Source of the DNA: Escherichia coli
GTDB lineage: Bacteria; Pseudomonadota; Gammaproteobacteria; Enterobacterales; Enterobacteriaceae
Strand: one strand, 5' to 3'
Assembly: GCF_009931435.1 (NCBI RefSeq)
Contig: NZ_CP043414.1
Length of the DNA: 64,000 nt
A program made the position numbers and the translations under genes. Under the pieces are notes generated by a model. The model saw only the letters and a program-made list of their open reading frames with translations, ran no database searches and had not been told where the DNA came from. This document shows, one piece after another, positions 12,742 to 42,796 of the stretch (its first letter is position 1; each line of letters starts with the position of its first letter).

Positions 12742-12757
12742 TGTTTCGGACATATTA

Positions 12758-21210: not shown

Positions 21211-24200
21211 CAGGCGCTCTCCTTATCTTGTGCAAAGAACGCCCAGGCCACTTTGTAGTCGTCTTCGCGATCCGGCTTGATAAACGGTGCCTGCCAGGTG
21301 ACGGTACGGCGCTCGCCTTCGTCGCTGCGGGTATAGTCATCAAAGGTGACGCTGACGGTACCGGTTTGCAAATGTTTGACATCATCCCAACCGATGGCTT
21401 GATCGGTGCAGTCACCGCCGGTCCACTCCGGGCTGTCGACGTTAAAGACAAAGCCGTTTTTCAGGTCAGCTTTACGCGCGGTGCGAGGCAAGCCAACGCC
21501 CACCAACCCTTTGCTTGGGGTAAAGATGATGCGGCCGTTTTGGTCGTACCAGGTGTCCGCTTCGTACTGACGCATCACCGGGAACTGTACACGGTAAATG
21601 GTAAGCAGCTCTTCGAGGGTTAACCCCAGCGCCTGTGCCACCAGAACGTCGATTTCCACCAGCGCCTGACGACGACTGTAGTCGGAGCGTAAGGCACAGT
21701 TACGCTGCCACTCTGGGGTCAGATTGGCGAAGAAATCTTGTGGGAGCTGCGGGAGATCGCGGCTCCAGCGTTGGGTATTGAAGTCTGGGGTGTAGCAGGA
21801 TTGCCAAAGGCCAGCATATACATCATTTACAGAATTTAATGATAATACTAAGCAGTATAATAATGCCTTTTGTCTCGGATTGAATAATACGTATGAGAAA
21901 CCATCAAGCATCTGATGTAAGTTTGCCTTGCCAGTAGATTTACAAATAAAATCAAAAGGTAAAGAAAAACACATACCTGAATGTTCGAGTAACTGATTCT
22001 GTGAGCTATAGCAGTAAGAACGTACTGCGTTCATGTGACTTATTTCTGGCGGATAAATAGCACTAATTAGTGTACGTTCCCCCGATTGAGCCAACATGGC
22101 TCTGATAGCTAAGCGATAATAATCTGTTACCTTCTTCGGTTCATCTTCAGCCAGTTCAGTCCATGTAACGCATGGAGTACGTTTGGCATACTCCTGTGCA
22201 TCACAGGCTGGAATATAGTTAGTGCGCGGCAAATAGTCGTCGGGCAGAGTTAGCAAGTCTAGGTTATCGTATGCTTTATTCGTGTCACAAACCGCTCTAG
22301 GCGTATTGTAGAAAGGATTGCCAACAAAAAAATGAGGGCCAGACAAAACCCATTGTGATGCTTCTTCCGGGAACTGTGTATGTCGCTCAATTGTACCATC
22401 GCTTTGCTGATTAGTTTCATGCCACATTTCTAGAGAATAATATTGCCCCTGCAAATCACCTAATCGCCTAGGTTGTTTCGCAAACTTTTCAAGTACTGTA
22501 ACTAATTGTGTAGCATGCAACGCAGGAAGACGGGCTTCCTGGGCAGGAGTTCCGACAACATCATAAAGACGCGCAAAAAGACCCAACTGTTTTAAATTTA
22601 TAGGCACGACTCGATCGAAATGTCCCTGGAAATTCCATTTAACTTTTACTTTGCCATCGATTTCAGTTTCTTCTTTTATCCCCGGGACAATGCCTTCCCC
22701 TTTATGTTCAAAACACGCGTCAATAGTTTGAGGAATAAATAAATTTGCTATATTTGAGAATGCCACTATCTGAGAATAGGGGCCATATACATTGATGCTA
22801 AATCTAGTGTGATTATCTACTTCAGCAAATATTTTAACTTCATTGGCAAATTGAAAATGCGCCCTCAACCTCGGGTACACTGCCGCACGCAACTGCCCAC
22901 CTTTCGGGTCATCATAAATCCCTTCCGGGTGCAGGAAGCCTGCCACGCCTTTCTCTGCCCCTAAGCGCCATGCCTGCGGCAGGAAGCATTTATACAAGTT
23001 GGTCTGCACCCCGCGCAGTACCGGGTAGTTTTGCTGCGCATTGAGGAAGTTTTGCATCCCTTCACAGCCTTCATACTCGCTGCGCCAGGCCGCTTCCAGC
23101 GCTGGGATCTGGTTAAAGGTATCAACACGCAACGTTGCCAGCTTCGATGCACTCAGCTTACGCAGCACAAATTCCGGCTCGTAATCACCCAGCACGCCCG
23201 CTTCCTGCCATTCCACTTTTAGCCACGGCGGGTTTCCGAGCATCAGGTCAAAACCGCCGCGCTCGGCAAACAAGTCGCAGAACTCCAGATCCCAGTGGAA
23301 GAAACGGTGCTGCTTTCTCAGGGCATCGACAATCGCCAGACGCGGCAAATGGCGGAACAGCACATCGGTTTTCAGACGACCAGCAACGGAAAACAGCGAA
23401 GACTCTTCTCGCAGCAGGCCTTCTTCGGCAAACAGATCGCCAGTGGTGTGATCCGCAACTTCAGTGACTTTTTCCGTGATTACAATCCCGTCGAGCAGGG
23501 TTTCAATCTCAAACAACCAGGTACCGCGATCCGGTAGCTCATCAGCTTTGTCGATCGGCCAGAACCACAGCGCGCACCAGTAGTCCATCACCCAACGCAG
23601 CTTCTGGTAGGCGCTGTTATCTTCAAGACGACCGCTAAAGGTTTCATCTTTACTGCTCAGCGAAGAACGTGTCTGCTCGCTGTTTTCTGCCGGCCACACC
23701 GGGTAGCTGTCGGCGGTTTTCAGACGTTCTGCTTTAAGTTGCTGGCGATAGGTGTTCCACAGTGCTTCCACCTTTTCGCTGATACGCTGCACATCAGCAA
23801 TCTCATGCCCGGCAAAGCTTTTAATAAACTCTTTGCGCCAGCTGTCCAGCGCTTTGAAGTCATCCGGATAACGCTGCTTAACAGTTTTATCGCTGTAATT
23901 AGCCATACCGCCGTCGGGCAGCAGGAAGTGGAAAATCTGCGTCTCTTCACGCGGCGTGTTCATCGCCAGTTCGACCGGCTCGCTGTTAAGCCAGCTCGGA
24001 TCTTTGACTTTTTTGTAGGTCAGTTCGCTCTTGTTGAACACCTGACGGCGCGCGCCCACCAGCGAGTTACCGCAGTGCAGCTGGTAACCAAACCACGGTA
24101 CAAAGGCATCGCCACTGATGGCGTTCAGCCACAGTGACACTTCCGCCAGCTCCACCGCCACCGGGTTTAAGTCCACGCCGAAAACGTTGTTGTCGGCAAT

Positions 24201-26144
24201 GTACATTTTCACCCGCTGTAACTCCTGGGTGTAACGATCCTGCGGAATACGTCGACCTTCCGCCTGCTGTTTGTGGAACAGATACGCTTCCGCCAGCTGG
24301 TTGATGGCTTCGTTAAGGAACGCCGCGCTGCCCATCGCCGGTTCGCACACGGTGAGGTTTAAGATGGCATCAGCTTTGGCGTGCGGATCGCTAATGGGAT
24401 CAATCTGCTCCTTAAACAACTCTTTCAGGGCATATTTAACCAGTGAGCGGGTCAGCACTTCCGGGGTGTAATAAGAGGCAGATTTCTCACGGTCGCGTCC
24501 GGCCATACGGTAGATAAAACTGCCTTTGCGGTGAATGCGCAGGCTGCCGTCTTTCTCGTAGACCTTCTCGTCTTCGTGGTATTTGCCAATCTCATCCTTA
24601 CTGACGAAGTAACCCGTCTCCAGCTCGTTAAACTCTTCTCCGGCTTTCTTCACCTCGTAGAGATCTTCGCTGGCGAAGAATCCGCGATAGGAGAGCAGTG
24701 CCTCATACACCGCACCCAACTGGTTGATACCCAACTGGCGATAAGAAATACGTCCGCGGCGGTTAAAGCGCTCTTTGCCCGGGCGGCTTAACGACATCGC
24801 CTGGATAATCTGTTGCAGGGTTTCGTTACGGAATACCACGCGGTTAAGAATGCGCGTGTTGTTGGCATCAAACAGATGACTTTCCAGACGCGGGACGCTG
24901 AACTGATGACTATGGATGGTGATCCGGTCGCCGCTCTCCAGGTCACTCTGCATTTTCACGCCGCCGTTGTAGCCTTCGCGCACCAGTTTAAACAGCATAT
25001 TCAGGCTGTCGTGGAAGTAGCGCCCGTTGCGATCTTCTTCGCTGGTCAGCGGGATCATCTCCAGATCGCGCAACGTTTCCAGGCTGTAACCTTGCAGATA
25101 GGTTTTGGCGGTCATCGGCGCATAACCCAGCTCCGGGCGCGCTTCAATGTAGAACAGGAACAGCAGGCGGTACATGTAACGCAGACATTCGCGGCTCAGT
25201 TCATCCGGGTCCACCGCACGGTTACCGGTATAGTTTGCCAGGCCACGGTCGATCAGGTAATGCATCGCTTCGTTGCCCAGCAGCTCAATGCTTTCGCGCA
25301 GGGCATATTTCAGATCTTCCGACACGCCAAACGCATGTTTGTGCGAATTGTCATCCAGCGAGTCAAGATAAGGTGCCCCACTGCCCGGCAGCAGAGAATC
25401 TTTATGTAGCAACACCGCCGTCGCTTTCAGCGTATCCGTTTCACGACGACTTAAAATCTCTTCAAAATCAAAACGCAGCAGACGGTTTTGCGCCCACTTA
25501 GTACGGTCCAGCAGCAATAGCTGACGGTTACCGAGCAATAGCACAAAACGCGGAGGTTCATTTTGGGTGAAGACCGCCGTAGAGAGCAGATCTTGCCAGC
25601 TGCGATATTCACCGTTGGCTTTTTTGCGCAGGCTGTCGCGCTTATGTTTGTCGGTATCCGCCGGGAATTGCGCGGTCAGTAAAGAGAGCGCCAGCGGATC
25701 CAGCGTTCCCTCTTCCTGATCGTGTGCTTCGACAATCCACAGCCACGGGCTACCGTCAGTGCTGTTGTAACGCGCCAGTACCGGCAGCGGTGTATCGTCA
25801 TCCAGCATTTGGATCTGCGGCGTAATTTCGTAACCCAGCGCCTTTAACAATGGCTGCCAGCGATTACGTTGATCGGCCAGACGTTGCGGGATCTGACGCT
25901 GTTTTTCGTGCTCGGCAAGTTTGCGGAAAAACTCAGTCGCCAGACTGTTAAACTGGTTCCACGGAGCGCGGTATCCCGGCTCTACGTCTTTGCCCTGTTC
26001 ACGAGCGGCACGCTCCGCTTCACGCGCTGCATTTTCCTGGGCTATCCAGGGTTCCAGCACATCGCGGATATCACTGGTGAAAACCTCACCCAAATAGTGG
26101 TTAGAGTAAAATTCGTTTTCGTTATTAATACCGACCAGCGCCAT
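21210..26144 (-). CDS. Very large (1644 aa) gamma-class N6-adenine DNA methyltransferase (DrmMI/PglX-like)
   Basis: AdoMet-binding motif I (...LNLTVCEPAMGSAAFLNEAINQ) followed later by the catalytic motif IV LMLGNPPWLKVEW (NPPW), which is the gamma-class order. It has long N- and C-terminal extensions and sits 2 bp downstream of the SNF2 gene. Confidence 0.75.
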   Translation of the reverse strand: MALVGINNENEFYSNHYLGEVFTSDIRDVLEPWIAQENAAREAERAAREQGKDVEPGYRAPWNQFNSLATEFFRKLAEHEKQRQIPQRLADQRNRWQPLLKALGYEITPQIQMLDDDTPLPVLARYNSTDGSPWLWIVEAHDQEEGTLDPLALSLLTAQFPADTDKHKRDSLRKKANGEYRSWQDLLSTAVFTQNEPPRFVLLLGNRQLLLLDRTKWAQNRLLRFDFEEILSRRETDTLKATAVLLHKDSLLPGSGAPYLDSLDDNSHKHAFGVSEDLKYALRESIELLGNEAMHYLIDRGLANYTGNRAVDPDELSRECLRYMYRLLFLFYIEARPELGYAPMTAKTYLQGYSLETLRDLEMIPLTSEEDRNGRYFHDSLNMLFKLVREGYNGGVKMQSDLESGDRITIHSHQFSVPRLESHLFDANNTRILNRVVFRNETLQQIIQAMSLSRPGKERFNRRGRISYRQLGINQLGAVYEALLSYRGFFASEDLYEVKKAGEEFNELETGYFVSKDEIGKYHEDEKVYEKDGSLRIHRKGSFIYRMAGRDREKSASYYTPEVLTRSLVKYALKELFKEQIDPISDPHAKADAILNLTVCEPAMGSAAFLNEAINQLAEAYLFHKQQAEGRRIPQDRYTQELQRVKMYIADNNVFGVDLNPVAVELAEVSLWLNAISGDAFVPWFGYQLHCGNSLVGARRQVFNKSELTYKKVKDPSWLNSEPVELAMNTPREETQIFHFLLPDGGMANYSDKTVKQRYPDDFKALDSWRKEFIKSFAGHEIADVQRISEKVEALWNTYRQQLKAERLKTADSYPVWPAENSEQTRSSLSSKDETFSGRLEDNSAYQKLRWVMDYWCALWFWPIDKADELPDRGTWLFEIETLLDGIVITEKVTEVADHTTGDLFAEEGLLREESSLFSVAGRLKTDVLFRHLPRLAIVDALRKQHRFFHWDLEFCDLFAERGGFDLMLGNPPWLKVEWQEAGVLGDYEPEFVLRKLSASKLATLRVDTFNQIPALEAAWRSEYEGCEGMQNFLNAQQNYPVLRGVQTNLYKCFLPQAWRLGAEKGVAGFLHPEGIYDDPKGGQLRAAVYPRLRAHFQFANEVKIFAEVDNHTRFSINVYGPYSQIVAFSNIANLFIPQTIDACFEHKGEGIVPGIKEETEIDGKVKVKWNFQGHFDRVVPINLKQLGLFARLYDVVGTPAQEARLPALHATQLVTVLEKFAKQPRRLGDLQGQYYSLEMWHETNQQSDGTIERHTQFPEEASQWVLSGPHFFVGNPFYNTPRAVCDTNKAYDNLDLLTLPDDYLPRTNYIPACDAQEYAKRTPCVTWTELAEDEPKKVTDYYRLAIRAMLAQSGERTLISAIYPPEISHMNAVRSYCYSSQNQLLEHSGMCFSLPFDFICKSTGKANLHQMLDGFSYVLFNPRQKALLYCLVLSLNSVNDVYAGLWQSCYTPDFNTQRWSRDLPQLPQDFFANLTPEWQRNCALRSDYSRRQALVEIDVLVAQALGLTLEELLTIYRVQFPVMRQYEADTWYDQNGRIIFTPSKGLVGVGLPRTARKADLKNGFVFNVDSPEWTGGDCTDQAIGWDDVKHLQTGTVSVTFDDYTRSDEGERRTVTWQAPFIKPDREDDYKVAWAFFAQDKESA

Positions 26145-26146
26145 GA

Positions 26147-29005
26147 TTAACCCTCCGCTCCGGTGATAACAGCAATTACCTGAATGTAGGGTTCTTTTTC
26201 AGTCGTCATGGTGTCCTCAATCCATTCAATATAGCTGTCAAAATTGTGTTCGATTTCGCGTTGTCTCTGCTCTTTACGGCTCTGCTTAACTGACAATTGC
26301 TGTTTGTTATCGGCAAAATCCAGCTCAAGTTGGCTCAACTGCCGCCCACGCAAAACGTCCAGCTTTTGCAGATGCTCATTCAGTTGCTGGTTAATGTGCG
26401 TTTCAAACGCATTCCGATCATGGATGAATACCTCCCGGGCATGAGCAATAGCCGCTTCCAGTAAATCCTGCTGGCGCTGGTGATTACGATCTTTACCGCC
26501 GCTGTTAGTCAGCTTGTTACTCAACTGCGGATGACGTTGTAAAAACTCAGCAAATGGCTGACTGCCGATTAGCGATTCACGGTTAAAGCTCACCACTATC
26601 CACGGGTTCACCATCGGATGTGATTTACGGTTCGGGAATAACCCGGAAAGAATGAAGTGATCTTCATCGGGTTCAAGCAGGTATGGCAGACGGATAACCG
26701 GTGCCTGATGACGACCAAAAGCCGAAGAGATTTTATCGTCCAGCCACTGCACTACCGGGTTGATTTGCCAGAGATACTGCACATCGGGCCAGGCATGTTG
26801 CTCACCGCGAGCGCGTGCAATCGCGTCGGTGATGACGGTTTTATCCTGACTTAAATAGAGCTGCCAGTTCTCCGGGGCGATTTCAGGCGGTAGCTGGTTG
26901 AAGCGGCGGCGTAACTCCTCCGGTGCCACCAGCGACAAGGTATTATCAGGCAAGGTTTCATACTGGATAGTTTGACCACTGGCTTTCAGGTAACCCAATG
27001 CTCTTTCGCAGTACGCCTGTTCGCTGGCAAACAAGCTGGTGTCTGTTTCGGTAACCATTGAGGCATCGCTGGAAACCGCACTGCATATTTCGCCAAACAG
27101 ATCATGTTCGGCGCTTTCCGAGACGTTGCTGTTCAGCAGTTGATCAAACAGGCTGGCACCATCATCCTGCATCATGAACTCTGCAACCTGCTCTTCTTCC
27201 TCTTCCTGGGTAAATTTGCCGGTAAACTCCGAACTGTCCCCAATGTTCTTCTGCGCCTGTTCGTCTTTGTTGATCAACACTTCCAGTACGCGCATATCGC
27301 CATTGATCTGCGGTTCGCTGGCCTCGGTAAGCAGATAGCGGATTTGAGGCTGATGTTTTTGCCCATAGCGGTCAATACGCCCGTTACGTTGCTGGAATAC
27401 CATCAACGACCACGGAATATCAAAGTGAATCATTTTGTGGCTAAGGTGATGCAGGTTGATCCCTTCAGATGCCACATCCGAACAAACCAGAAGACGCAAC
27501 GGCGACTGCGTTTTACCAAAGGCTTCTACGGTTTCCATCAACACCGTATCGCCCTGATCGCCGCGCAGCGTGGCGATCTGATCATCTTTCAATTTCAGAT
27601 CCGCTCGCAGTTGCTGTTCGAGGAACTCCAGCGTTTTAATGCTTTCGGTGAAGATCACCAGGCGATCTTCCGTGTTATTGGCTTTCCAGGCGAGGTCTTT
27701 TCGGATGGTGTCGAGCAGCAACTGGTATTTGCTAAACTGGCTGGCATCAATGTTATTCAGCGCCAACAGCAATGACTCCAGTTCGTTGATCTGGCTCTGG
27801 CTATTATGATCTTTACGGCTCTCAAGACGCTTCAGACGATTAGCCACTACGCTGGCACACGCCATCGGGCTGGAAAATAGCGCTTTTTCGAGGGTTATCT
27901 TGAACAGACGACCTTTGTTAGACTGGGCCTGTTCATCGTCATCATCACGGAACTGACTCTCAACCAGGCGACGGTATGCTTCTTCTTCGGCACCGGATGC
28001 CAGGCGAGTCAGTTTGACAATATTGCGCTCGGGGAACTCGCCAGACATCTGATCTTTCACGTCTTTTTTGAAGCGACGGACAACCAGATTTTTATCGGCA
28101 AAGTCGGCGTATTCATACTCTTTCGGGTTGGCGATCGCCGTCGGGTCAAGCATGTTCATCAGGCTGGCAAAACTTTCAGCTTTACCATCATGCGGCGTTG
28201 CTGAAAGCATAATCAGCGTATCGCTGCGCCCGGCGAGCAGTTTTGCCAGTTTACTGCGTAACGAACTGGTTCCACGTTCTGCGACGTTATGGGCCTCATC
28301 AATGACAATAATATCCCACCAGGCATTTTCCAGATGGTGACGATATTCAATATCTTGTTTCAGCGTATCGATGGAGATAATGGTCTTGTCAAAATAGTGG
28401 AACGGGTTGTGGTTGGTAGGGATGCGGTTACGCACTTTTTGTAAACCAGCAGAATCCAGGCGGGTCAATGGGATCGCAAAACGGCTCCAGAACTCCTTCT
28501 GGAATTGTGTCAGCATCGATTTAACCGCCAGAACCAGAATACGTTTTCCGCGCCCACGACGGATCAGTTCCGAAACCAGAATACCCGCTTCCAGCGTTTT
28601 ACCCAGACCGACAGCGTCGGCAATGAGTATCCGCTGACGCGGTTGTGCCAGCGCCATCCGCGTAGGATCGAGCTGAAACGGCATGGAATCCATCGCCGCC
28701 AGATGTCCAAAATGGACTTTACTGTCTGTCGGTACGCGTTGGCGTAACTGACTTTCAATATACAACTGTGCCGCCTGATAATTGGCGGATTCATCTTCCA
28801 CCAAATGCGTTTTTGCGGGATCAAGGATCTCTACTTTTTGTTCCAGTTTGGTCAGAAATAACCCTTCTTTACCGCGCACCAGCTCTGAAATACCATCGCA
28901 GGTCAGCAAATACCCACCATCACCACTGTCATCCGCCCGGCGAATACGCCATTCGGCATCACGAATAACCACCCGCATACCAGGTGCATAATTTTGCTTA
29001 TTCAT
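26147..29005 (-). CDS. SNF2/RAD54-family helicase (DrmD-like), first gene of the DISARM-like operon
   Basis: ADAVGLGKTLEAG (motif I), IVIDEAHNV (DEAH), LMLSATPHDG (motif III), C-terminal QQRNGRIDRYGQK (motif VI). Preceded by a 223-bp intergenic region containing inverted repeats. Confidence 0.75.
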   Translation of the reverse strand: MNKQNYAPGMRVVIRDAEWRIRRADDSGDGGYLLTCDGISELVRGKEGLFLTKLEQKVEILDPAKTHLVEDESANYQAAQLYIESQLRQRVPTDSKVHFGHLAAMDSMPFQLDPTRMALAQPRQRILIADAVGLGKTLEAGILVSELIRRGRGKRILVLAVKSMLTQFQKEFWSRFAIPLTRLDSAGLQKVRNRIPTNHNPFHYFDKTIISIDTLKQDIEYRHHLENAWWDIIVIDEAHNVAERGTSSLRSKLAKLLAGRSDTLIMLSATPHDGKAESFASLMNMLDPTAIANPKEYEYADFADKNLVVRRFKKDVKDQMSGEFPERNIVKLTRLASGAEEEAYRRLVESQFRDDDDEQAQSNKGRLFKITLEKALFSSPMACASVVANRLKRLESRKDHNSQSQINELESLLLALNNIDASQFSKYQLLLDTIRKDLAWKANNTEDRLVIFTESIKTLEFLEQQLRADLKLKDDQIATLRGDQGDTVLMETVEAFGKTQSPLRLLVCSDVASEGINLHHLSHKMIHFDIPWSLMVFQQRNGRIDRYGQKHQPQIRYLLTEASEPQINGDMRVLEVLINKDEQAQKNIGDSSEFTGKFTQEEEEEQVAEFMMQDDGASLFDQLLNSNVSESAEHDLFGEICSAVSSDASMVTETDTSLFASEQAYCERALGYLKASGQTIQYETLPDNTLSLVAPEELRRRFNQLPPEIAPENWQLYLSQDKTVITDAIARARGEQHAWPDVQYLWQINPVVQWLDDKISSAFGRHQAPVIRLPYLLEPDEDHFILSGLFPNRKSHPMVNPWIVVSFNRESLIGSQPFAEFLQRHPQLSNKLTNSGGKDRNHQRQQDLLEAAIAHAREVFIHDRNAFETHINQQLNEHLQKLDVLRGRQLSQLELDFADNKQQLSVKQSRKEQRQREIEHNFDSYIEWIEDTMTTEKEPYIQVIAVITGAEG

Positions 29006-29228
29006 CGGTTTTTCTGTCTATTTGGGGCAGTGGCGGTAACGTCATCCTGAAAAATGTGGCGCGGCACACTGCGATAAAAAAGAGGGCCTTAAAGATATCA
29101 TGAAGGCCCCCGGCAAAGTGACAAAATGGGAGGGAATGCGCATAAATTGCGCATGATTTTCAAACAAAAATTATTAAAAAGTGAGCTGGGTCAACTCCCC
29201 TGGAAGATATCCCCAGGGGAGCAATTAT
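29006..29228. promoter_or_regulatory. Intergenic region between druE-like and the SNF2 gene with two perfect inverted repeats (putative terminator and operator/promoter)
   Basis: CTCCCCTGG-aagatatc-CCAGGGGAG at 29195..29221 lies 8 bp beyond the druE-like stop. ATGCGCA-taaat-TGCGCAT at 29136..29154 is a second palindrome. AT-rich sequence follows toward the SNF2 start. Confidence 0.45.
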
Positions 29229-32200
29229 TTATCCAGCGATAACATAACTCCTAAGGTCATTACCCGGGGCAACAGCTCGCGCTCGCGTGTTTGCCAGCCG
29301 TTCAACTTGCTGCGGTACTCGCAGAGCAAAATCAAAGAAGGTGTCTTCAATACAGCGCCAGTAGCTAAGCCCCATGTCGAGCAGGACATAATGCTGACTG
29401 CCATCGCTGAAGGTGACTGTCAGTTCTCGTCCATGCTCCGTACTCTGGTTATCCCCCGTTAACCAGCTAATTGCTCCCGGCCACGCAGGCCCCAGATATC
29501 CTTCTTCAAGTAAAGTGGTCACAACCTGCTGACGATCTTCCTCATTAAGCCACGCGTTATAGAGAGCGTCGTGTTGGCGAGAGTTGTAATCCAATTTTTT
29601 GACGCAAACAGTGAGGCTGGCACGTTCCGCCATTCCCTGTTCAACCAGCTCAGTTAAGATTTCACCTAACAAACGCGCCGTGAATGGGCTATTAAGATAA
29701 CGATCGCTGTACTCAACATGCGTTATCTCTTTGTGGCGGGTAAATGCCTGCTTCCAGCCAGCGTGCTGTTGCGTGACTAACGACCAGAAACGCGAACCAA
29801 ACCCTTCCAGCGGCCCGTCCAGTTGCTCGCAGAGGTTGATGCGCACCGCCCCGGTGGGTAAGGCGGGCAGTAAATCTTCTGCACTTAAGGTCTGACCCGA
29901 GAAGGTTTTTCCGGACGTTCCTTTAAGTGTCACTACTGGTGAGGACGCACTTTGTCCCCATAATTCACCAGGTGCAACGGTAGCGCTGTCGTCTGCGGCC
30001 CACTGTTGGCTTTGCCCTTCGCGAGTCACCTGCGCAAGCCAGCGCCCCTTTCCTTGCATGAGTTGCGCAGTGGCAATGGATTTCACTTGTAAGCGCCCTC
30101 CCGGCATCGCCGCCAACGCGGAAAGCTGATGTCTGGAGCTATCAGTTAAGTTTGCCAACGGCGTGGCCACCAGCAACTCAACATGCCCACCGGAGGAGGC
30201 AAACTGGAGCAACTCTTTAAATAATGGCCATTGGGCAAAATCCCACTGTTCCTGCGGCCCCGCAAGAACCAGCGAGCAGGAGTCATAAATCTCGCTGTTC
30301 AGGCATTGCGCAATACGTAAACTCAGCGGGTTAGTTTCAACCCGGCTACCATCGCCGAAGTACTGATATTCTGGCGCGAGGTTAAGTCGCTGCAACCGTA
30401 CATTGGTAAGCAGGGTTAATGCATGGTGACGATCTAATCTGTTGACATAATGCTGACTGTCGTAGCTGAGCAAGCAGTGGTGACAGAATTTATCGCAACT
30501 GCAATCGAGCAATTTTCTGGCGTAATTAAAGACATCAGCCCAATGGTCGATCAATTGCACTGCATAACCTGCACCACCCGCATTATTGTCGTAAATGAAG
30601 ATGGAATATCCGGTATAGCCATTGATATCGCGCGCTTGCTGCGTCGTCACGCCCAGCTCAGTATTTTCGATACCCAATTTATGCGCTAACCCTTCACGCA
30701 AAGCGACCGCAAGGGATCGCGCGGCAACCTCATCACGGATCAACAGGCCATTATCATCATTGAGTTGCAGCTCAACCATATCTGTACGACTGCTATACCC
30801 CAACCACAGATCTTTATGCACATGACCGTGGCACAATTTATTGCTCCCCTGACGATCGTTACTGCCCCCTCGCAACAGGTAATGCGTATTTTCCCGCTCT
30901 GGGTTCTTTAGATTTTCAGGGGTACGCTGGGGTTGAGTTTGAGATTCTGCCCGACCACATGAGAGGCAAATTGCGTAGCCGTGCCCAAATTCCCCTTCAC
31001 TGAAGTGGAACAATTCCCCACTATGGCTAAAACGGTAACGTCCTAGCCCAGCATCGGGTAAAGAAACCCACACCGAAGACGGTACAAGAACACGTGGATC
31101 TTTCCAGGGAAGTTGTGCAGGCATGGATACATCATTATGTGCCTGATAACGAATATCTGTCGCAAAACCAACAGGCTGTAAATAACGCTTCACATCAAGT
31201 TGCTGTATATCCGCTTTGCAGTGACTACATTCGACAGGATGGGTAGCACTGGTTGCCCCCGCACCACATTTACGGCAATGCCAGAACCACGGAATATGAT
31301 GATCGCCTGACAGCTCCTGCCCGCTGGCAAGTACCTTGCCAAGCATAATGCCCGAGGAACGATATACTTTTCCGCCCAATACCACATCTGCACCAGGCGC
31401 ATACTCGCGTAATGCTGTAGGTAGATCACGGCTGGGCAATTTTTCAATACGACGAGAAAAGCTTTCTCCCCCTTCATTAGGGTCAGCCTGAGTAGCTTTT
31501 ATTGCGCGACGTTTTTCCAGCTCATCTGCCGTCAGATAATTGAAATTGACGACACCAACCGGGAAACCATGCCCCGGCAGGAACGCTTCACTAATGAGTT
31601 TAGAAAACAGATATGCACCGCGATAATCACGAAGCTGATAAGCGATGGCTTTACCTGCTGGCGTTTCTTCCCACGCGCTGTTATCCGCTTTCAACGCTTC
31701 GATATTTTCCAACAGTATCGCAAGTTGGCTTCTCCAGCGGATATCAACCTGCTGCATCATTGCTTGTGTGCGGGTCAAGAGCTGGGTTGCCGTCAATGAC
31801 ATCAGGACGGTTCCCTGAGTAAGGCGTTTAAGTTTATCCGCTAGCTGATCGGCCTGGTTATTTAACCAATGGAGAAAACGAAGACACTGGCTCTCATCAC
31901 CTTCAAAGAACCATTTGCAACTCAGTTTTGTCGCATCAGGAACTTCAGCTCGTAAAAACAGACCTAAAACCAGGGCATTAACATGTCGTTGAACAATACT
32001 GCTGCTCCCAAAACGAACCCGTGGCGCACTGGCAGTAGTGTTGAACGCCCAGAGGGGGTCTTTGAATACCTCCATTCCATGCGCCGTGTTTTTACATAAC
32101 GTAATGGCAGCAGATGCACTCTCTCCACGTCGACCCGCGCGGCCTGCACGCTGCAAATAATTTGCCGGAGCTGGAGGAACGTTGTTCATTGCCACCAAAC

Positions 32201-35200
32201 TCATACCACCAATGTCCACCCCCATCTCCATGGTCGTGGAGCAGTTCAGCACATTAACTTTGCCTGACTTAAATTGTTTTTCATTAAACTGGTTCTGCTC
32301 AGGCGTTCTCTGCGCAGAGTGTTCCTCCAGACGATACCAGCTATCTTTCAGGGCCAGTCGGTCGCTGCGAGTAGACCATAATCCTTCCTCGCGGGCATGT
32401 TGAATCAGCGCATTACTTTCCAGCCACTCCAGACGTTCTTCTCGGGCGATTTCTCCACCACCAGACAAACGCCAGTGACGTACAGGAAGCTCAGGCATTT
32501 CAATCAACACTGCTTTTTCAGGTGCAATTTCTTTGCTACCCGGCAAATACGGAGAGTATCCCAGTAACGTGACGTCTAACGCACGTCGAGTATAGGGGCA
32601 ACGCCACACTTGCTTTGGACTGTAAAATTCAGCTTGTTGTTTAATATCCAGCTGATAACCCGACTCAAACTGACGTAAGCAGGGTCGAATTGCATCCCAG
32701 ACCTCAATCATTAAGTGGTTAACTAACGATTTCCAGTGAGCCTGCTCAGGTTGTATTGCCGGAAAGACTGCAATTAATAGCTTAATGACCCGGTTATAAT
32801 GGCGATCGCGTATTTGTGGCCAAAGTTGATCACGTTTCTGCCCTTTGTTTTTTTTATCTGGACCCTGCAGCATTTTTACCGGGAAACGAGCCCCCATCCA
32901 GCGAGGGTATTGCTCGTTTTCGTAAAAAACGGCACTGTTTTCACGTATAAAGAAATCAAGAGTAATCTTCAATAAATTACGCCATTCCGCTAATTGCTTA
33001 TCGGGATCGGGTAATAATGTCTTCCAGTCCTGCGGGCAGGTTGTAACTTTATCAATAAATGGATAGTGAATGGCTACCAGACCCAGACTTTCGAGGGTCC
33101 AGGCATTTTTAGGGCGGCGACCAAACTCACTGTATAAACAAAAATCTGCAAACTGTTGTTTAGTAAGATCAAGCCCAGACAATTCTTTAAAACTGCCTCT
33201 CATTCTATCGGCAAGGTCCACACTGCCAACCAGCTGTTCAGACAGTGTTTGCCATGACATGGTTTTCTTCTGCTGATTGCCAGAGTTAGCCTGGAGTATT
33301 TGCATCGCTTCAGCATGATCCGGGCTTAAGGAACTCACCATCGGCTCGATAATTTTAAGTGCCTGAATGTCCGCCGGGCTAAGCTCTTCATTAGCAACCA
33401 TCGCTTTTTTCAGCGCGTCAATAGAGTTTTTTAAAGGAAGGATAGAAAACTGGGCAATAAAACTCTCTAACAATGCGCAGTGTGCCGGGCTGAGCTTTGC
33501 TGATGGCTCATTAATATTGGCCAGCTCCTGGTAGCAAAGAGCTCGCAACGTCGCTTTATCGGCATCCTGCTGTAAGCGGGCAGAAATGCGGGCAGTGCCC
33601 TGACGTGAATCCGTAAAGGTGAGCAGACGTCGACCATTAAACGGTCCTAACTGCTCTTCTCTTGTCTGCGGTAATGGTGAAAACTCCAGCAGAGTAGGAA
33701 TAATTTCATTTAAAAAAAAGGGCGCGCCAAGTCGAAGCGGACGGAATAAAGGATTATTTTTTCGTTGGGTGTCACCACAGCAAACACAAGCAAAGGAATT
33801 ATTACGTCCCTCACCTCGAGATTCCGGTCTTAACAGGTTTATTTCATAGTGCTTTTGCGCTTCACTATCAATTTTCCCCGCCGTCGTTTCTTCCAGTGAA
33901 ATGATATATTTTTCACCATCGCTCGCAATCAGACGATCAAATTGAGAGTTATTGTCTAATTCGTCGTTGTCTTCATCTTCAGAATAAACATCTACATCAA
34001 GAGCAAACTCATCCACTTCGGCAGCGGCGGGTTGCGCTACCAACCAGTTCGTTCCATCACCGCGCATCTCCTCTTTGGCAGACAAATAAGCTGAACCACA
34101 CCCGGAGCAACGTAAAACTTCAAATACCGGCGCACCACAGTCACAATATTGGCGCTGCTCAAACCATACCTGACCAAATGGCCAGTCACTCTGATTTAAT
34201 TCATGTGCTTTATGTGAGCATTGTTTGTTTGAACATGCCCATAGACCCGCCAGTGTTCTGATAAATCCATGCATACGTAATGGCGTAAAAGCCAGTTCAC
34301 CTTCTCGCGATCTTGCCATTAGATCGAGGAGTTGCAGTAGCTCACGGTGATTAATATCTGGCCAGGTTCTTCTGGCAACATTGAGCAACTCACTCAAACG
34401 TACTGCCTGCCGTCCGGGATGAGTTAACGCCTGACGCAATTGCTGGGCCACACGGTAATGACAAAGCTGTTGGTAAAGATCCTGAGGGCTCAGAGATTTA
34501 AGAGAAGTTAAAGATGTGGGGTATTCATGACGAATCAGCGACTCCGATACCCGCGGTATTTGTCGATAACCGCGAACCACTTTGACATCACGTTCTGTAA
34601 CGCCCGCGAGATCAGCGACAAATTTAGCAAGCTCCTTATTACCTTCAGGAGAGTCTTCACCAATAGTGGCAGAGGTCGCGATAATCTGCACAGGTTTATC
34701 TGTGCCGGGTCCAACATTGAAAGCCTGCATAACACGACGTAAAAGCAGCGCTAACTCAGCAGCCTGAGAACCAATATAACTATGGGCTTCATCCAGGACG
34801 ATATACTTTAACATCCCCTGAGACTTTTCGATGATTGGGGCATCTTTACGACGAATCAGCATATATTCCAGCATGGTGGTATTCGTCACCATGATGGAAG
34901 GTGGTGCTTCGTAAATGGCTTCCCGACTCAAAGCTTGTTCAGGTACTTTCAACTGATCTTCCTGAATTTCGTATTTGGTATGCCGGGTTTCGCCATTATA
35001 TAGCGCGAAGCGTATTTTCCCCTTAAATCCGCGCGTCCATTCGCGAAGCCGCTCCTGTTGACTGTTAATTAATGCATTTAACGGATACAAGAAAATAGCT
35101 TGTGTCCCTGTTAGTGACTGGCGGGTCGATTTTTGCTGACGAATAAGATCTTCCAGAACCGGTACCATAAAGCATTCTGTTTTCCCGGATCCCGTACCGC

Positions 35201-35552
35201 TGCTCACTAACAAGGATTTTTTGTCTTCCAGAATTGTTCGCCACGCAGTGAGTTGATGACGAAATGGCACTGGCGCTTTGCTCAATGCATCAACCAGCGG
35301 GCTGGAGATCAGCTTGTCCCGCAAATCCTCCATTGTTTCATCCGCAGGCATCCAGCCGAATGTACTTTCGAATACCGGGTCTGCAAGCAGTGACCCCTCC
35401 TGACCGGGAGGCTGAAAATATTGTGATTCCAGATAATGAGTCAACGACTTGCTCCGCAATGCCAACTGACTTACCACCGACCTCACCGCACGCTGATGAA
35501 GCTGATTTAGAAGTGGCGCATAATGCAGTTGCTGAACGTCCATCAATGACAT
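29229..35552 (-). CDS. druE: Giant 2107-aa DEAH helicase/DUF1998 protein, DruE-like (Druantia signature protein)
   Basis: SGTGSGKTECFMVPVL (I), VLDEAHSYIGSQ (II), ATSATI (III), QRAGRAGRRGES (VI), then Cys/His clusters CLSCGRAE...CHGHVHKD and DCSCDKFCHHCLLSY (DUF1998-like). Same architecture as the 2113-aa protein. Start overlaps the stop of the upstream 1119-aa gene by 10 bp. Confidence 0.6.
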   Translation of the reverse strand: MSLMDVQQLHYAPLLNQLHQRAVRSVVSQLALRSKSLTHYLESQYFQPPGQEGSLLADPVFESTFGWMPADETMEDLRDKLISSPLVDALSKAPVPFRHQLTAWRTILEDKKSLLVSSGTGSGKTECFMVPVLEDLIRQQKSTRQSLTGTQAIFLYPLNALINSQQERLREWTRGFKGKIRFALYNGETRHTKYEIQEDQLKVPEQALSREAIYEAPPSIMVTNTTMLEYMLIRRKDAPIIEKSQGMLKYIVLDEAHSYIGSQAAELALLLRRVMQAFNVGPGTDKPVQIIATSATIGEDSPEGNKELAKFVADLAGVTERDVKVVRGYRQIPRVSESLIRHEYPTSLTSLKSLSPQDLYQQLCHYRVAQQLRQALTHPGRQAVRLSELLNVARRTWPDINHRELLQLLDLMARSREGELAFTPLRMHGFIRTLAGLWACSNKQCSHKAHELNQSDWPFGQVWFEQRQYCDCGAPVFEVLRCSGCGSAYLSAKEEMRGDGTNWLVAQPAAAEVDEFALDVDVYSEDEDNDELDNNSQFDRLIASDGEKYIISLEETTAGKIDSEAQKHYEINLLRPESRGEGRNNSFACVCCGDTQRKNNPLFRPLRLGAPFFLNEIIPTLLEFSPLPQTREEQLGPFNGRRLLTFTDSRQGTARISARLQQDADKATLRALCYQELANINEPSAKLSPAHCALLESFIAQFSILPLKNSIDALKKAMVANEELSPADIQALKIIEPMVSSLSPDHAEAMQILQANSGNQQKKTMSWQTLSEQLVGSVDLADRMRGSFKELSGLDLTKQQFADFCLYSEFGRRPKNAWTLESLGLVAIHYPFIDKVTTCPQDWKTLLPDPDKQLAEWRNLLKITLDFFIRENSAVFYENEQYPRWMGARFPVKMLQGPDKKNKGQKRDQLWPQIRDRHYNRVIKLLIAVFPAIQPEQAHWKSLVNHLMIEVWDAIRPCLRQFESGYQLDIKQQAEFYSPKQVWRCPYTRRALDVTLLGYSPYLPGSKEIAPEKAVLIEMPELPVRHWRLSGGGEIAREERLEWLESNALIQHAREEGLWSTRSDRLALKDSWYRLEEHSAQRTPEQNQFNEKQFKSGKVNVLNCSTTMEMGVDIGGMSLVAMNNVPPAPANYLQRAGRAGRRGESASAAITLCKNTAHGMEVFKDPLWAFNTTASAPRVRFGSSSIVQRHVNALVLGLFLRAEVPDATKLSCKWFFEGDESQCLRFLHWLNNQADQLADKLKRLTQGTVLMSLTATQLLTRTQAMMQQVDIRWRSQLAILLENIEALKADNSAWEETPAGKAIAYQLRDYRGAYLFSKLISEAFLPGHGFPVGVVNFNYLTADELEKRRAIKATQADPNEGGESFSRRIEKLPSRDLPTALREYAPGADVVLGGKVYRSSGIMLGKVLASGQELSGDHHIPWFWHCRKCGAGATSATHPVECSHCKADIQQLDVKRYLQPVGFATDIRYQAHNDVSMPAQLPWKDPRVLVPSSVWVSLPDAGLGRYRFSHSGELFHFSEGEFGHGYAICLSCGRAESQTQPQRTPENLKNPERENTHYLLRGGSNDRQGSNKLCHGHVHKDLWLGYSSRTDMVELQLNDDNGLLIRDEVAARSLAVALREGLAHKLGIENTELGVTTQQARDINGYTGYSIFIYDNNAGGAGYAVQLIDHWADVFNYARKLLDCSCDKFCHHCLLSYDSQHYVNRLDRHHALTLLTNVRLQRLNLAPEYQYFGDGSRVETNPLSLRIAQCLNSEIYDSCSLVLAGPQEQWDFAQWPLFKELLQFASSGGHVELLVATPLANLTDSSRHQLSALAAMPGGRLQVKSIATAQLMQGKGRWLAQVTREGQSQQWAADDSATVAPGELWGQSASSPVVTLKGTSGKTFSGQTLSAEDLLPALPTGAVRINLCEQLDGPLEGFGSRFWSLVTQQHAGWKQAFTRHKEITHVEYSDRYLNSPFTARLLGEILTELVEQGMAERASLTVCVKKLDYNSRQHDALYNAWLNEEDRQQVVTTLLEEGYLGPAWPGAISWLTGDNQSTEHGRELTVTFSDGSQHYVLLDMGLSYWRCIEDTFFDFALRVPQQVERLANTRARAVAPGNDLRSYVIAG

Positions 35553-38500
35553 ACTCCTGCTTGTTCAAAATAATATTGATAGATTACCCCTAATTGCTGT
35601 GGGGCTTGCTGATAGTGAAATTCAAAAAGCGCAGACAGTTGATGTATCAGGTTATTATCTTTTTGGGTTAACAGCGCTGCGACTAACATCAAATTAAAAC
35701 GTTTTTCAAGCCGTGAGTGATATTTATCTTCAATCCAAAGCTTATTAAAAACAGATTTTAACTCTGGAGTAATAGCACTAGACCAAAGTTCTTTAGGGAA
35801 GATACTGATACGCCCAAAGCTGTCGGGGTTCCTTAATAGCATCTGTTTAGCTTCATTAAACTGCTCACGACTAACAGTTGGCAATACATCACAACCGGTT
35901 GGTAGGCTCTCACTATATGTAAGTAACATATTCGCAATGGGAGCCAGCCGACGATCGATATGTGCACGATGGTTCATAAAAGCAATAAAGGGTTGCAATA
36001 TATGTAATGCTAATGTTTTATCGTTAATCTGTTTTTCCAGATAAGTCCAACATTTTTGGAAAACATCTTTCCAGATTGAAACGGGAATCCATCCCCATGA
36101 AAAGGGTAATTCTTCCTGTATATCATAAATCGTATCGCTATCACCAGAAAGACATGATGATATTAACAATTGAACAACCACGCGGTAATTACTCGAAATA
36201 CCTCTGAACAAGTCCAGATCCAGCAAGGATAAGCCATTATTCATTTTGTACTTCTTAATATACTCTGTTAATAAACAGCAATAATTTTGCAATGGGTTGT
36301 TATCTATTTCAAAAATTAGCTCATTAAAATTTTTTTTGCGCTGTTCTGGGTCTGCTTCGCATAGAGCATTTAGTAATAAATCATTTGTCTGCAATACAGG
36401 TAGCATCCATTTAATTACTGGTGCAATGCGAGCTGTACCATCAAGTTTTCCCACAATTAACCATGGACTATCCTGAACATTCAGAGCTGAAAGATCATAA
36501 GCAAATTCATCTTTTTTTAGCAATGATTTGTGTAAGCCAGGATCCTTAAGAGAAATAGCATCAACAACCAGTTCGTCTATTCTATTTGCAGGAAAAACAA
36601 CAGAATTTTTTATATCAACCAGCAACCCTTGATCGTGTTCAATAAAACTACCATCGTAGCGTTTAATATTGAGTGTTGCTTTATCCTTTCCAAATCTGTC
36701 AGAGTAAAAATCAACACATAATGTACTATTGCTGTTCCATGCACATGCCAGCATAGCATTTAGCAAATTATAGTTCTCATAAAGTGAAATTTGTTGTAAT
36801 TTGTCATTGCGTCCTGATAAAAGAGGAAGGTCGGCATGTAAATAACGGAATTTTTCAGCTACTGGATTTTCATCCAATAACTCGATATTAAGATATCCTC
36901 TTCCAGCACATGATATGGTTAATAACTCAGCATCTATTCCATGCAAATGTGCTATAGATGCCACACCATCAAAATGAACAGAACCATCATTAGTTACAAA
37001 TCGGCCACCGCTAACCGGCTTAGGTAATAATAGTTTAAGATTAGAACCATCTTTCCAGGAGACCCGTAAATCAACGGTATTTTCCAGCATCTGCGATGAA
37101 TTATAATAAATAGCACACTCGTTTTGTGAATAATCGGACTTAAGTGTTACTTTTTCATTGTTTGAATATTTATCAATTCTAGTATCCGTTATACCAGAAA
37201 GCATAATAATGCCTTGCTGAGCACTCTCAGGTATAATATTAATATCGAAGTCTGCTGGTAAAACTACAACTTTACCGCTAAATAAAACCTCATCATTAAC
37301 TATTCGCCGGACTTCTATCTGTCCTTTTGGCATTTCTGATGCGACAGAATACCAGGCATTGTTACCTGAACGAATGGAACGCCAAAAAAGTTCTTTCTCC
37401 GGTACAATGCCATATTGCAGATCCTTTTTCCAACCGATCTTCGGCCAGGCTCGATGGACAGGATAATCCGATTTAACCAGTTCAACTTCTGTCGATTTAA
37501 TATAATATTCAATCGCAGAATCATAAAGTTGCTGGGTGCGAATTGTACAAACAGCACCATCATGTAAAACAACGCTAAATACTCCACTTATTTTAGTTAA
37601 GCTGCGTTCACTGTTTTTCAGCAACCTTGGGATATCAAACTCACCTTCTCCACTAATATCTAAATGGCTATTTTTCGGTAGCGAAATAAACAGAGCATTT
37701 AGCCTGGAACTCACAGACCCCATACCGACAAGTTTTAGCTGCGATTCACTCTCATTCATCGCTTCAAAAACCCAGGGGAGTTCTTCAGTAAGTTCATAAC
37801 CGCCTTTTGGAATTGTGTGGCCTAACAGAATTGGACCTTCATGAAGCGACAACGAGATTTCGGCCATTGCATCTGCACCAGAGAGCTTTTGCATCGCAAT
37901 AGGTAATAACTCGACCCGCCAATCTTGCTGCTCATAACGGCTTAGCATTGCCAACCTTGCCCCGCCATTTCTCCATTTTCCTGAAATGATGAGTCGGGTC
38001 TGCTCCGGCTGAATATGGCATTCAAACAAAGAGGTTAACTGTTCTGTACGCATTGTGGCCGGGAATCGGAACCGGGCATCACAATACCAACTGTCATCAA
38101 CATCGACCCAGATTCTTTCAACCTGAAGACTACTTGCACTGCGTATTTCAGAAGATTGAGAAAGTAATCGCCTTACAATCTCTGCAGCATTCGCTTCGGG
38201 GAGAACGAGTGGAAGTTGAAGATGCCAGTCTGGAGAGAGCTTACGTAATGCAGAAACGGGATCACTGCTTTGAGGTGGATGCTCACTAAGTAATCGGCAG
38301 AGAGTCTCGCAGAATTCACCGGCTATTTCATAGACCAGTTCGTTTTGCATTGTGACAGGAATCGTATCGCCTAATTCTTGTGCAATTTTAGCGGCAGGAT
38401 ATTGAGATGCTTGCCCACGAAGCGCCTGATATATCCTTCTGAAATAGGTAATCAAATAACCGCTCTCATTTTCAATCATGCGGATAGGTAAACCACCTTC

Positions 38501-38902
38501 ACAAGCCAGTGTATGCAGATAACCCGAAGCTTGCCCCAGGTTTCTTATCTTTCTTTTCCAGTAGCGAATGCCATCATTAACCAGCTTCTGTCGATGAACA
38601 TACGGAACTTTCCAGTCAATAGAATCTAAAATTGTGTCCCATTTAGGGTGTCCGACCGTATGAGTCCGGCGGATAAACTCTGCGGCATATATGCTAAATA
38701 GAACATCGCTATAGGAAATGAATATCGTTCTTGGATAACTACGAGGGGCATATGTACGCAGTAGTTCTGCCAAACTTTCGTACTCTGTATCAGTACAACG
38801 GTAAGCATATAACGCCCGTCCATCAGCTCCGGATAATGAACGGCGACTAAAAAACATGTTAAGCCATTGCAAAAGTGGGTTAACTGGAGTTTTCACAAGC
38901 AA
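35543..38902 (-). CDS. druH: 1119-aa protein of unknown function, DruH-like partner of DruE
   Basis: Large low-GC ORF with no recognisable catalytic motif, translationally coupled to the DruE-like gene. The pairing and size agree with the two-gene Druantia type III layout as I recall it; assignment is by context only. Confidence 0.5.
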   Translation of the reverse strand: MLVKTPVNPLLQWLNMFFSRRSLSGADGRALYAYRCTDTEYESLAELLRTYAPRSYPRTIFISYSDVLFSIYAAEFIRRTHTVGHPKWDTILDSIDWKVPYVHRQKLVNDGIRYWKRKIRNLGQASGYLHTLACEGGLPIRMIENESGYLITYFRRIYQALRGQASQYPAAKIAQELGDTIPVTMQNELVYEIAGEFCETLCRLLSEHPPQSSDPVSALRKLSPDWHLQLPLVLPEANAAEIVRRLLSQSSEIRSASSLQVERIWVDVDDSWYCDARFRFPATMRTEQLTSLFECHIQPEQTRLIISGKWRNGGARLAMLSRYEQQDWRVELLPIAMQKLSGADAMAEISLSLHEGPILLGHTIPKGGYELTEELPWVFEAMNESESQLKLVGMGSVSSRLNALFISLPKNSHLDISGEGEFDIPRLLKNSERSLTKISGVFSVVLHDGAVCTIRTQQLYDSAIEYYIKSTEVELVKSDYPVHRAWPKIGWKKDLQYGIVPEKELFWRSIRSGNNAWYSVASEMPKGQIEVRRIVNDEVLFSGKVVVLPADFDINIIPESAQQGIIMLSGITDTRIDKYSNNEKVTLKSDYSQNECAIYYNSSQMLENTVDLRVSWKDGSNLKLLLPKPVSGGRFVTNDGSVHFDGVASIAHLHGIDAELLTISCAGRGYLNIELLDENPVAEKFRYLHADLPLLSGRNDKLQQISLYENYNLLNAMLACAWNSNSTLCVDFYSDRFGKDKATLNIKRYDGSFIEHDQGLLVDIKNSVVFPANRIDELVVDAISLKDPGLHKSLLKKDEFAYDLSALNVQDSPWLIVGKLDGTARIAPVIKWMLPVLQTNDLLLNALCEADPEQRKKNFNELIFEIDNNPLQNYCCLLTEYIKKYKMNNGLSLLDLDLFRGISSNYRVVVQLLISSCLSGDSDTIYDIQEELPFSWGWIPVSIWKDVFQKCWTYLEKQINDKTLALHILQPFIAFMNHRAHIDRRLAPIANMLLTYSESLPTGCDVLPTVSREQFNEAKQMLLRNPDSFGRISIFPKELWSSAITPELKSVFNKLWIEDKYHSRLEKRFNLMLVAALLTQKDNNLIHQLSALFEFHYQQAPQQLGVIYQYYFEQAGVCH

Positions 38903-42587: not shown

Positions 42588-42796
42588 ATTCCGAAACTCC
42601 GTGAAAGTTAAGACTTTCACGGAAGATAAATAAAATTCTCCTGATTTGTGACTCAAATTATAAAAGTCGTTTATGGCATAACTTGTCTGTTTTTTTGGTG
42701 TAATAGGTATAAAGGCATATGCTATGGTTAGCCTTATATTTAAAACTTTCCTCATACGGGTGAAGGTTAAAGCTTGGTAGATAGGTTACAGTCACA

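Follow-up and report, generated by a model that had tools for sequence, protein, structure and literature searches.

A candidate boundary and control region lying between the genes for Druantia type III and those for ARMADA type II in Escherichia coli

Introduction

The name ARMADA type II was given in two 2025 preprints to the armABCD genes (z5899-z5902) of Escherichia coli, and the system was described there as an active defence that acts in synergy with Druantia type III (10.1101/2025.09.22.677730, PMC12458937). The cluster was cloned "under its native promoters" in the single-copy vector pBeloBAC11, and the resulting plasmid, pARMADA, protected BL21-AI against phages (PMC12458937). ARMADA was also still active in ATCC 8739 with druHE deleted (2025 preprints). 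The papers on the O157:H7 island treated the gap between druE and armA merely as "native promoters", and none of the elements of this gap were described there. In E. coli, stem-loops at gene ends are known from 3'-end mapping to shield the 3' ends of mRNAs once Rho has terminated transcription and exonucleases have trimmed the RNA.

We studied this gap within a window (the whole 64,000-nt stretch of E. coli contig NZ_CP043414.1, assembly GCF_009931435.1, that was analysed) that represents the ARMADA type II/Druantia type III island of E. coli O157:H7 (OI-172, SpLE6). An initial annotation of the DNA had spoken of a "DISARM-like operon". The relation to DISARM holds, but the preprints name and test ARMADA type II (armABCD) separately, and the operon is therefore a published system distinct from DISARM.

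Results

Gene organisation and published constructs

The 223-nt segment at 29006-29228 is the exact interval between druE and armA, bounded by the armA start codon (29005) and the stop codon of druE (29229-29231). The druH and druE genes and armABCD all lie on the minus strand and are co-directional, and Zorya II is divergent from druH in the same island. The gene order armA-armB-armC-armD, the encoded domains (PADLOC, RefSeq) and exact matches to the published primers identified the operon as ARMADA type II. In O157:H7 Sakai, the counterpart of druE is ECs_5260/Z5898 and the SNF2 gene (armA) is ECs_5261. The druE-SNF2 junction was found in 528 of the 5426 complete E. coli genomes, including that of O157:H7 Sakai, as well as in 17 plasmids. 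In O157:H7 strain F8092B (L001:20530-29293), druE is split by ISEc8, an element of the IS66 family, and the gap and armABCD are intact. The Shine-Dalgarno sequence of armB is strong (GGAGGG) and overlaps the end of armA (26144, minus strand). The positions of the genes and of the gap elements are collected in Table 1.

Table 1. Genes and sequence elements at the druE-armA gap (window coordinates)
Feature	Coordinates	Strand	Description and basis
druH	35543-38902	-	PADLOC DruH3; with DruE3, Druantia type III
druE	29229..35552	-	Druantia type III helicase-nuclease; PADLOC DruE3, 2182 bits, full length; stop TAA 29231-29229
Hairpin 1	29195..29221	-	Perfect 9-bp G+C-rich stem; 12 bp counting G-U pairs in sense RNA
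P_A, candidate -35 TTGACC	29189..29194	-	Abuts hairpin 1; partner TAATTT 29173-29168, spacer 15
Palindrome ATGCGCA-n5-TGCGCAT	29136..29154	-	Half-sites 29136-29142 and 29148-29154; 7-bp hairpin in sense RNA, ΔG -9.2
CCCUCCC, C-rich single-stranded motif	29128..29134	-	Between palindrome hairpin and terminator; aligns to mmgR CCUCCC (sub-threshold)
Canonical intrinsic terminator	29076..29111	-	Stem GGGGGCCUU (29111-29103)/AAGGCCCUC (29090-29082), then U6 (29081-29076)
P_B, extended -10-like motif TGATATCTT	29092..29100	-	TGnTA...T; candidate arm promoter; positional conservation
Most conserved gap block	about 29059..29100	-	ATCTTTAAGGCCCTCTTTTTTATCGCAGTGTGCC (29059..29098); contains extended -10 motif
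Leader stem, armA 5' UTR	29027..29072	-	GCAGUG (29072-29067):CACUGC (29032-29027); interior variable
A-rich translation-initiation region CAGACAGAAAAACCG	29006..29026	-	Upstream of armA ATG; 73-87% identity to Serratia-type
armA	26147..29005	-	SNF2/DrmD-like helicase, first gene of the operon; PADLOC DrmD match
armB	21210-26144	-	Type IIG/DrmMI-like methyltransferase; PADLOC domain match
armC	14869-21210	-	2113-aa DruE-like, YprA-type helicase; PADLOC DruE-like match
armD	12758-14872	-	UvrD-like; ORF order and RefSeq annotation

The published primers allowed the cloned segments to be placed on the window. The insert-specific part of primer FN1701 (PMC12458937) matched 29228-29206 exactly, starting at the first base after the druE stop codon. 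The pARMADA insert thus runs from 29228 through armD and is functional without druHE or the rest of the island, as an undissected segment for which no promoterless control was reported. From the lacZ-alpha region of the vector and the vector tails of the primers, we take this insert to be oriented against Plac. Primer TG179 matched 29179-29228, and the druHE deletion in ATCC 8739 leaves the whole gap in place. No transcript start or end data for the druE-armA gap were found in the texts searched, the supplement of Tree 2014 giving no coordinates there. Since a clone that starts at 29228 and consists of the gap and armABCD defends without druHE, the gap very probably carries the arm promoter, and its 223 nt very probably suffice for armABCD expression without other genes of the island.

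Comparative survey of ArmA loci

A search for ArmA in one genome per species gave 80 loci. In Escherichia, Siccibacter, Serratia, Yersinia and an Enterobacter MAG, DruE lay directly upstream of ArmA, and the gap measured 223 nt in every case. DruE was also upstream in two vibrios, with a gap of 128 nt (L013) or of similar length (L015). In an uncultured gammaproteobacterium (L017:3960-3990), the druE stop and the armA start overlapped as ATGA, leaving no gap; this overlap places the Druantia III and ARMADA genes in one operon there, and insulation between the two systems is thus not a general requirement. A fragment of druE on an E. coli plasmid (H30) was an IS-truncated remnant and was set aside as uninformative, and no Druantia-only loci were found among viral contigs searched for relatives of the DruE C-terminal part.

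In Enterobacter wuhouensis, Mangrovibacter and Citrobacter, druHE was replaced by two co-directional genes encoding proteins of 1569 and 743 aa. The same pair was present in E. coli 1218KP, where the arm genes had been lost to an IS. The pair was located directly upstream of the ARMADA gap (L086:2007-8944 in E. coli 1218KP, L005:18-3748, L006 and L014). Neither protein had a match in Pfam, PADLOC or NCBIfam, and the 743-aa protein also had none in the PDB. The two genes may represent a defence module, so far uncharacterised, that is exchanged for Druantia III. Among more distant loci, the ARMADA-like loci of Nostoc (L043, L051 and L052) had a 9-bp hairpin, AAGAAATTT...AAATTTCTT, at about -114 from armA, and its 10-nt loop had opposite orientations in L051 and in the other two loci, as though recombination between the arms had turned it around.

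Inverted repeats and hairpin 1

The chance occurrence of inverted repeats was estimated from 5000 dinucleotide-preserving shuffles of the 223-nt gap. Perfect inverted repeats of 9 bp (loop 3-12 nt) arose in 0.8% of the shuffled gaps, and 13% had one or more perfect inverted repeats of 7 bp (loop 0-10 nt). The 9-bp hairpin therefore exceeded chance, whereas the 7-bp palindrome alone did not. The whole gap folded better than its shuffled versions on the minus (sense) strand (z = -3.7) as well as on the plus strand (z = -3.4). Both inverted repeats reported by the initial annotation (hairpin 1 and the palindrome) were present at exactly the positions given. A third inverted repeat, GGGCCTT (29084-29090)/AAGGCCC (29103-29109), was followed directly by six T on the sense strand. 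The first two had been considered the only obvious places for insulation and regulation, a view that overlooked the terminator at 29111-29076, the conserved block with the -10 element and the stem in the 5' leader. Hairpin 1 and the terminator also have in their loops a 13-nt direct repeat, CCTTAAAGATATC/CCTGGAAGATATC (plus strand, 29087-29099 and 29199-29211), with copies that are 85% identical, each contain GATATC and were seen in the E. coli-type gap only.

Hairpin 1 begins 7 nt past the druE stop codon, and its arms, CTCCCCTGG (29195-29203) and CCAGGGGAG (29213-29221), enclose a 9-nt loop (chance p = 0.008 in the shuffles). The arms differed between lineages, reading CTCCCCTGG/CCAGGGGAG, CTCCCCCAC/GTGGGGGAG and CCCCCTGCC/GGCAGGGGG. 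Pairing was retained in 100% of the cells, compared with just 52-77% for slid controls, and three pairs were changed on both sides among six distinct sequences, a covariation that comes from three independent lineages only. The stem was stable throughout, with a ΔG of -17.6 to -24.4 across all lineages and -21.2 in the window, and the sense RNA was more stable than the antisense RNA in five out of five variants. The presence of a 9-bp-stem hairpin just past the druE stop was thus borne out by both its rarity (p≈0.008) and its compensatory changes in three lineages.

The proposed role of this hairpin as the druE terminator did not fare as well. No U-tract follows hairpin 1 in any lineage (UUGACCCAG in E. 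coli, UUGACGAAG in the Serratia-type), and in its vicinity the terminator scan returned only another, weak 6-bp hairpin at 29197-29183. Hairpin 1 was kept in loci without druE (L005, L006, L014 and L086), where it stays with armA next to the unrelated genes that replace druHE. When druE-type and alternative-module loci were compared, the homology started 7 nt upstream of hairpin 1, exactly after the druE stop codon, which indicates that the hairpin travels with the ARMADA module. Given the missing U-tract and its persistence beside armA in the absence of druHE, hairpin 1 is not a canonical druE terminator, and, without a U-tract, efficient intrinsic termination at this site is unlikely; it is probably not an efficient intrinsic terminator at all. 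As judged from the sequence comparisons, it is an RNA structure under selection, placed where the upstream transcript ends and the ARMADA module begins. Our best guess as to its role, drawn from its form and position, is 3'-end protection or pausing.

Comparable gene-end hairpins were observed elsewhere in the window. The armD gene is followed, a few nt after its stop codon, by a perfect 11-bp-stem hairpin (12715-12742, minus strand) without a U-tract, the folded gene-end stretch having a ΔG of about -24. A perfect 11-bp-stem hairpin, likewise without a U-tract, follows zorE a few nt after its stop codon (42598-42623, plus strand; ΔG of the folded gene-end stretch about -16). Gene-end hairpins without a U-tract seem to be the usual pattern in this island.

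The terminator and the palindrome

The element at 29111-29076 combines a 9-bp stem (ΔG -15.1) with UUUUUU directly after it, a stem followed by at least five U being the form expected of an intrinsic terminator. It was skipped by the scanning tool because its loop is 12 nt long and the loop limit of the tool is 8 nt. The element sits about 85-110 nt beyond hairpin 1. Its hairpin was not kept in the orthologous gaps, with 61% of the cells paired and six of the seven pairs departing solely by unpairing. A second variant, from E. coli and Klebsiella plasmids, reached a ΔG of -8.5 only, and in other genera the value was about 0. The 3' arm and the T-run were nearly invariant, and the 5' arm was 20% identical to the Serratia-type. 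With the 3' arm held fixed, the chance of a perfect 7-nt 5' arm was 0.0009. At about 0.09%, this chance makes the terminator look real and recently acquired, and in these alignments it was confined to the E. coli lineage. It is possibly dispensable, since gaps of other types lack the hairpin and one E. coli/plasmid variant has a weaker form of it. A riboswitch-like alternative fold of the terminator was also considered and rejected, the sole competitor being a weak CUCCC:GGGGG pairing of 5 bp, by which the CCCUCCC motif can bind the G-run in the terminator 5' arm of the nascent RNA.

The palindrome has perfect dyad symmetry, yet it does not exceed chance (p = 0.13). Its pairing was retained in 76% of the cells with zero compensatory changes. 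The corresponding sequences were ATGCGTG...TGCGCAT in the Siccibacter/Citrobacter-type, ATGCGTT...TGCGTAT in the Enterobacter-type and ATACGTG...TGCGCAT in the Mangrovibacter-type gap. The symmetry of the DNA was broken in the L004, L005 and L006 types, and the pairing was partly kept there through G-U pairs of the sense RNA. Nothing comparable was present in the Serratia/Yersinia type or in the aeromonad locus (L009). The hairpin, with a ΔG of -9.2 in the E. coli type, was weaker in the other types (0 to -6). The region of the palindrome was about 60% identical to the Serratia type, not far from the 34-53% identity of the third codon positions in the flanking genes. A search of the window for further copies gave six matches with up to three mismatches, where 5.5 were expected, and thus none beyond chance. 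In line with the initial annotation, no dedicated regulator gene was found nearby. The palindrome had been put forward as an operator, an assignment that finds no support in view of its chance-level occurrence, its unconserved half-sites, its lack of extra copies and the fact that no regulator is needed in BL21-AI. It is best read, from sequence, not as an operator but as a lineage-specific RNA hairpin or a chance repeat. The only Rfam match on the gap was mmgR (RF00519), below threshold.

Promoter candidates and the armA leader

The candidate arm promoter P_B has a predicted start at about 29088-29084, within the 3' arm of the terminator. The TG-n-TA...T pattern was found at the same position in the alignment of the enterobacterial lineages and L009 (TGATATCTT, TGTTATCTT, TGATACTCT and TGGTACTCT), and the raw sequence of L010 had TGGTACCCT at the corresponding place. 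P_B carries TG at -15/-14, T at -12, A at -11 and T at -7, i.e., the bases of an extended -10 element, and its conserved bases are those that matter most in an extended -10 promoter. The tool scan gave an overlapping alternative, TTGTCA (29124-29119) and CATGAT (29102-29097) separated by 16 nt; in the E. coli variant CUWW06, TTGTCA was lost and TGATATCTT was retained. Promoter scores in a single sequence were not above chance (the probability of a maximum score of at least 9.3 was 0.33 in the shuffles), and TGnTAnnnT was present in 26% of the shuffles. As the scores are no better than those of shuffles, the choice of the extended -10 follows from positional conservation only, in few lineages. 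The Vibrio relatives had no extended -10; they had TAATAT or TACTAT about 20 nt further downstream.

The second candidate, P_A, starts from the TTGAC that follows hairpin 1 and is invariant in all three lineages. The position-weight-matrix (PWM) scan scored P_A at 9.3 bits in E. coli and at 10.8-11.4 bits, as TTGACC-16-TATCGT, in the L004-type; the same scan gave no partner -10 in the Serratia-type. Inspection of the gap by eye revealed no fit to sigma-54 or other sigma-factor motifs.

Three stretches of the gap were clearly more conserved than third codon positions, i.e., 29203-29189 (the 3' arm of hairpin 1 and TTGAC), 29098-29059 and 29028-29006. In the case of the block at 29098-29059, identity to the Serratia-type was 67-100% in 15-nt windows, against 34-53% at the third codon positions of the flanking genes. 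The leader stem was paired in 100% of the cells (13 distinct sequences), with one G-C to A-U double change and two G-U variants. It was scored with a hand-given structure only, the wider alignment that included Vibrio being misaligned and the interiors variable. The stem was kept in the aeromonad locus L009 despite a longer and different interior. The armA start has no recognisable Shine-Dalgarno sequence, and AGACAGAAAAACCG-ATG is conserved there. A metagenome scan with the conserved leader pattern CTYTTTTTATCGCAGTRYSCMG yielded three unrelated chance matches only. The leader also contains a 19-codon ORF, MISLRPSFLSQCAAPHFSG (29042-29101, minus strand), with its ATG at 29101 in the terminator loop. 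The length of this ORF was kept in the E. coli, L004 and Siccibacter/Enterobacter types. The ORF was rejected as probably not encoding a conserved peptide, as the shared nucleotides, read by eye, lie in another frame in the Serratia-type and L009.

Discussion

The reading that we favour, with a probability of roughly 50%, is that the gap is an ordinary boundary and control region made up of a gene-end stem-loop, a terminator of the E. coli lineage, and the arm promoter with its leader, the starts and ends of transcripts being those that we infer from sequence. Hairpin 1 would most likely act on the transcript of whichever gene lies upstream, for example as a 3'-end-protecting or pausing hairpin, or as a buffer where the ARMADA module begins. 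The terminator at 29111-29076, restricted to the E. coli lineage, would stop the transcripts of druHE, or those from a possible upstream promoter by hairpin 1. The armABCD promoter would lie inside the gap, the best candidate being the extended -10 TGATATCTT at 29100-29092. Transcripts from P_B would escape the terminator because their predicted start lies inside its 3' arm, and incoming transcripts would thus stop about where the arm transcripts start. The predicted armA 5' UTR of about 80 nt would consist of a conserved U-rich block, the stem at 29072-29027 and an A-rich start without a clear Shine-Dalgarno sequence.

This reading keeps the general idea that the gap is a region of insulation and regulation, in keeping with the functional clone that carries it, and differs from the initial annotation in what the individual elements do. 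That annotation had hairpin 1 as the intrinsic terminator of druHE and the palindrome as the operator of a repressor or activator of armABCD. It draws on a strong, conserved hairpin 7 nt past the druE stop, on perfect dyad symmetry and on a palindrome centre that would lie about 60 nt upstream of the predicted P_B start or about 15 nt downstream of the predicted P_A start. We consider it improbable, because hairpin 1 has no U-tract in any lineage and stays with armA when druE is absent, and because the palindrome is a chance-level repeat whose symmetry is broken in the L004/L005/L006 types and which is missing from the Serratia-type; the window has neither further copies of it nor a regulator gene, and the operon functions in BL21-AI without the island. 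The break of homology 7 nt upstream of hairpin 1, exactly at the druE stop, together with the fixed pentamer TTGAC after it, could instead mark a DNA-level recombination or cassette-junction site at which defence modules upstream of ARMADA are exchanged. Such a function is very hard to reconcile with the other data: the upstream contexts seen were just two, there is no associated recombinase, the sense RNA is the strand favoured by the G-U pairs, armD and zorE are followed by gene-end hairpins of a comparable kind, and no further copy of hairpin 1 exists within the window. The real insulation of the two systems may also be questioned. The six genes all point the same way, no U-tract follows hairpin 1, Druantia III and ARMADA co-occur and act synergistically, and the ATGA overlap of druE and armA in L017 would fit a locus in which the druH promoter drives most transcription of druHE and armABCD together, the hairpins being processing or stability elements. 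We regard this as quite unlikely for the E. coli locus, where the gap and armABCD alone defend from a single-copy vector and the gap has a strong canonical terminator, its length of 223 nt being conserved in five genera.

An RNA-based function of the gap is somewhat less improbable, though still unlikely. An RNA of about 85 nt would start from P_A at about 29161, form the palindrome hairpin, expose CCCUCCC and end at about 29076; its action would be that of a free small RNA whose seed resembles an anti-Shine-Dalgarno sequence, or else that of an attenuator limiting read-through into armA. The segment 29159-29069 aligns end to end with the mmgR architecture of Rfam (25.1 bits), TTGAC is invariant, P_A reaches 9.3-11.4 bits in the E. 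coli- and L004-type gaps, the terminator is strong, and armB has the ribosome-binding site GGAGGG. On the other hand, the mmgR score is far below the gathering score of 41, and the palindrome hairpin and the terminator are confined to the E. coli-type gap. The 15-nt spacer of P_A is non-optimal and its score is no better than chance, no stable antiterminator fold was obtained (-14.9 vs -24.3 kcal/mol), and a search of EHEC papers gave no small RNA of this kind. The specific proposal that a lineage-specific RNA of about 85 nt (~29161-29076), composed of the palindrome hairpin, the anti-Shine-Dalgarno-like CCCUCCC and the intrinsic terminator, is encoded in the E. coli-type gap is improbable; such an RNA may come from the promoter abutting hairpin 1 or be cut from the druHE 3' UTR. 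If it exists, it would tune ARMADA (e.g., armB through its GGAGGG site) or other genes, and it would link two synergistic defence systems through RNA.

On the favoured reading as a boundary and control region, the elements of the gap are of ordinary kinds, newly described at this locus, and they leave the understanding of such regions unchanged. The coordinates of the terminator, the promoter candidate, the conserved leader and the boundary hairpin will mainly be of use in building such systems or taking them apart. A search for a regulator would do poorly to start from the palindrome.

The individual elements can be set beside their known counterparts. The gap shares with the alphaproteobacterial small RNA mmgR (RF00519) the same succession of a hairpin at the 5' side, CCUCCC as a single strand and a terminator bearing a U-run; it differs in its score of 25.1 bits against a gathering score of 41 and in the other host clade, so that the likeness is architectural only. 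P_B resembles the extended -10 (TGn-TATAAT) promoters of sigma-70 in that the key bases are kept and the other bases vary, but its -35 is weak or absent and the Vibrio relatives use another -10-like element downstream. The element at 29111-29076 is similar to the Rho-independent terminators of E. coli in its G+C-rich stem, the U6 directly after it and its location downstream of a co-directional gene, and is peculiar in that its conservation does not extend beyond the E. coli-type gap and that it shares sequence with the likely arm promoter. Hairpin 1 shares with those terminators the stem but not the U-tract. It is closer to the 3'-end-protecting stem-loops, being stable, free of a U-tract, biased towards the sense RNA and located a few nt past a stop codon, and, unusually, it is inherited with the downstream module and not with the gene that precedes it.
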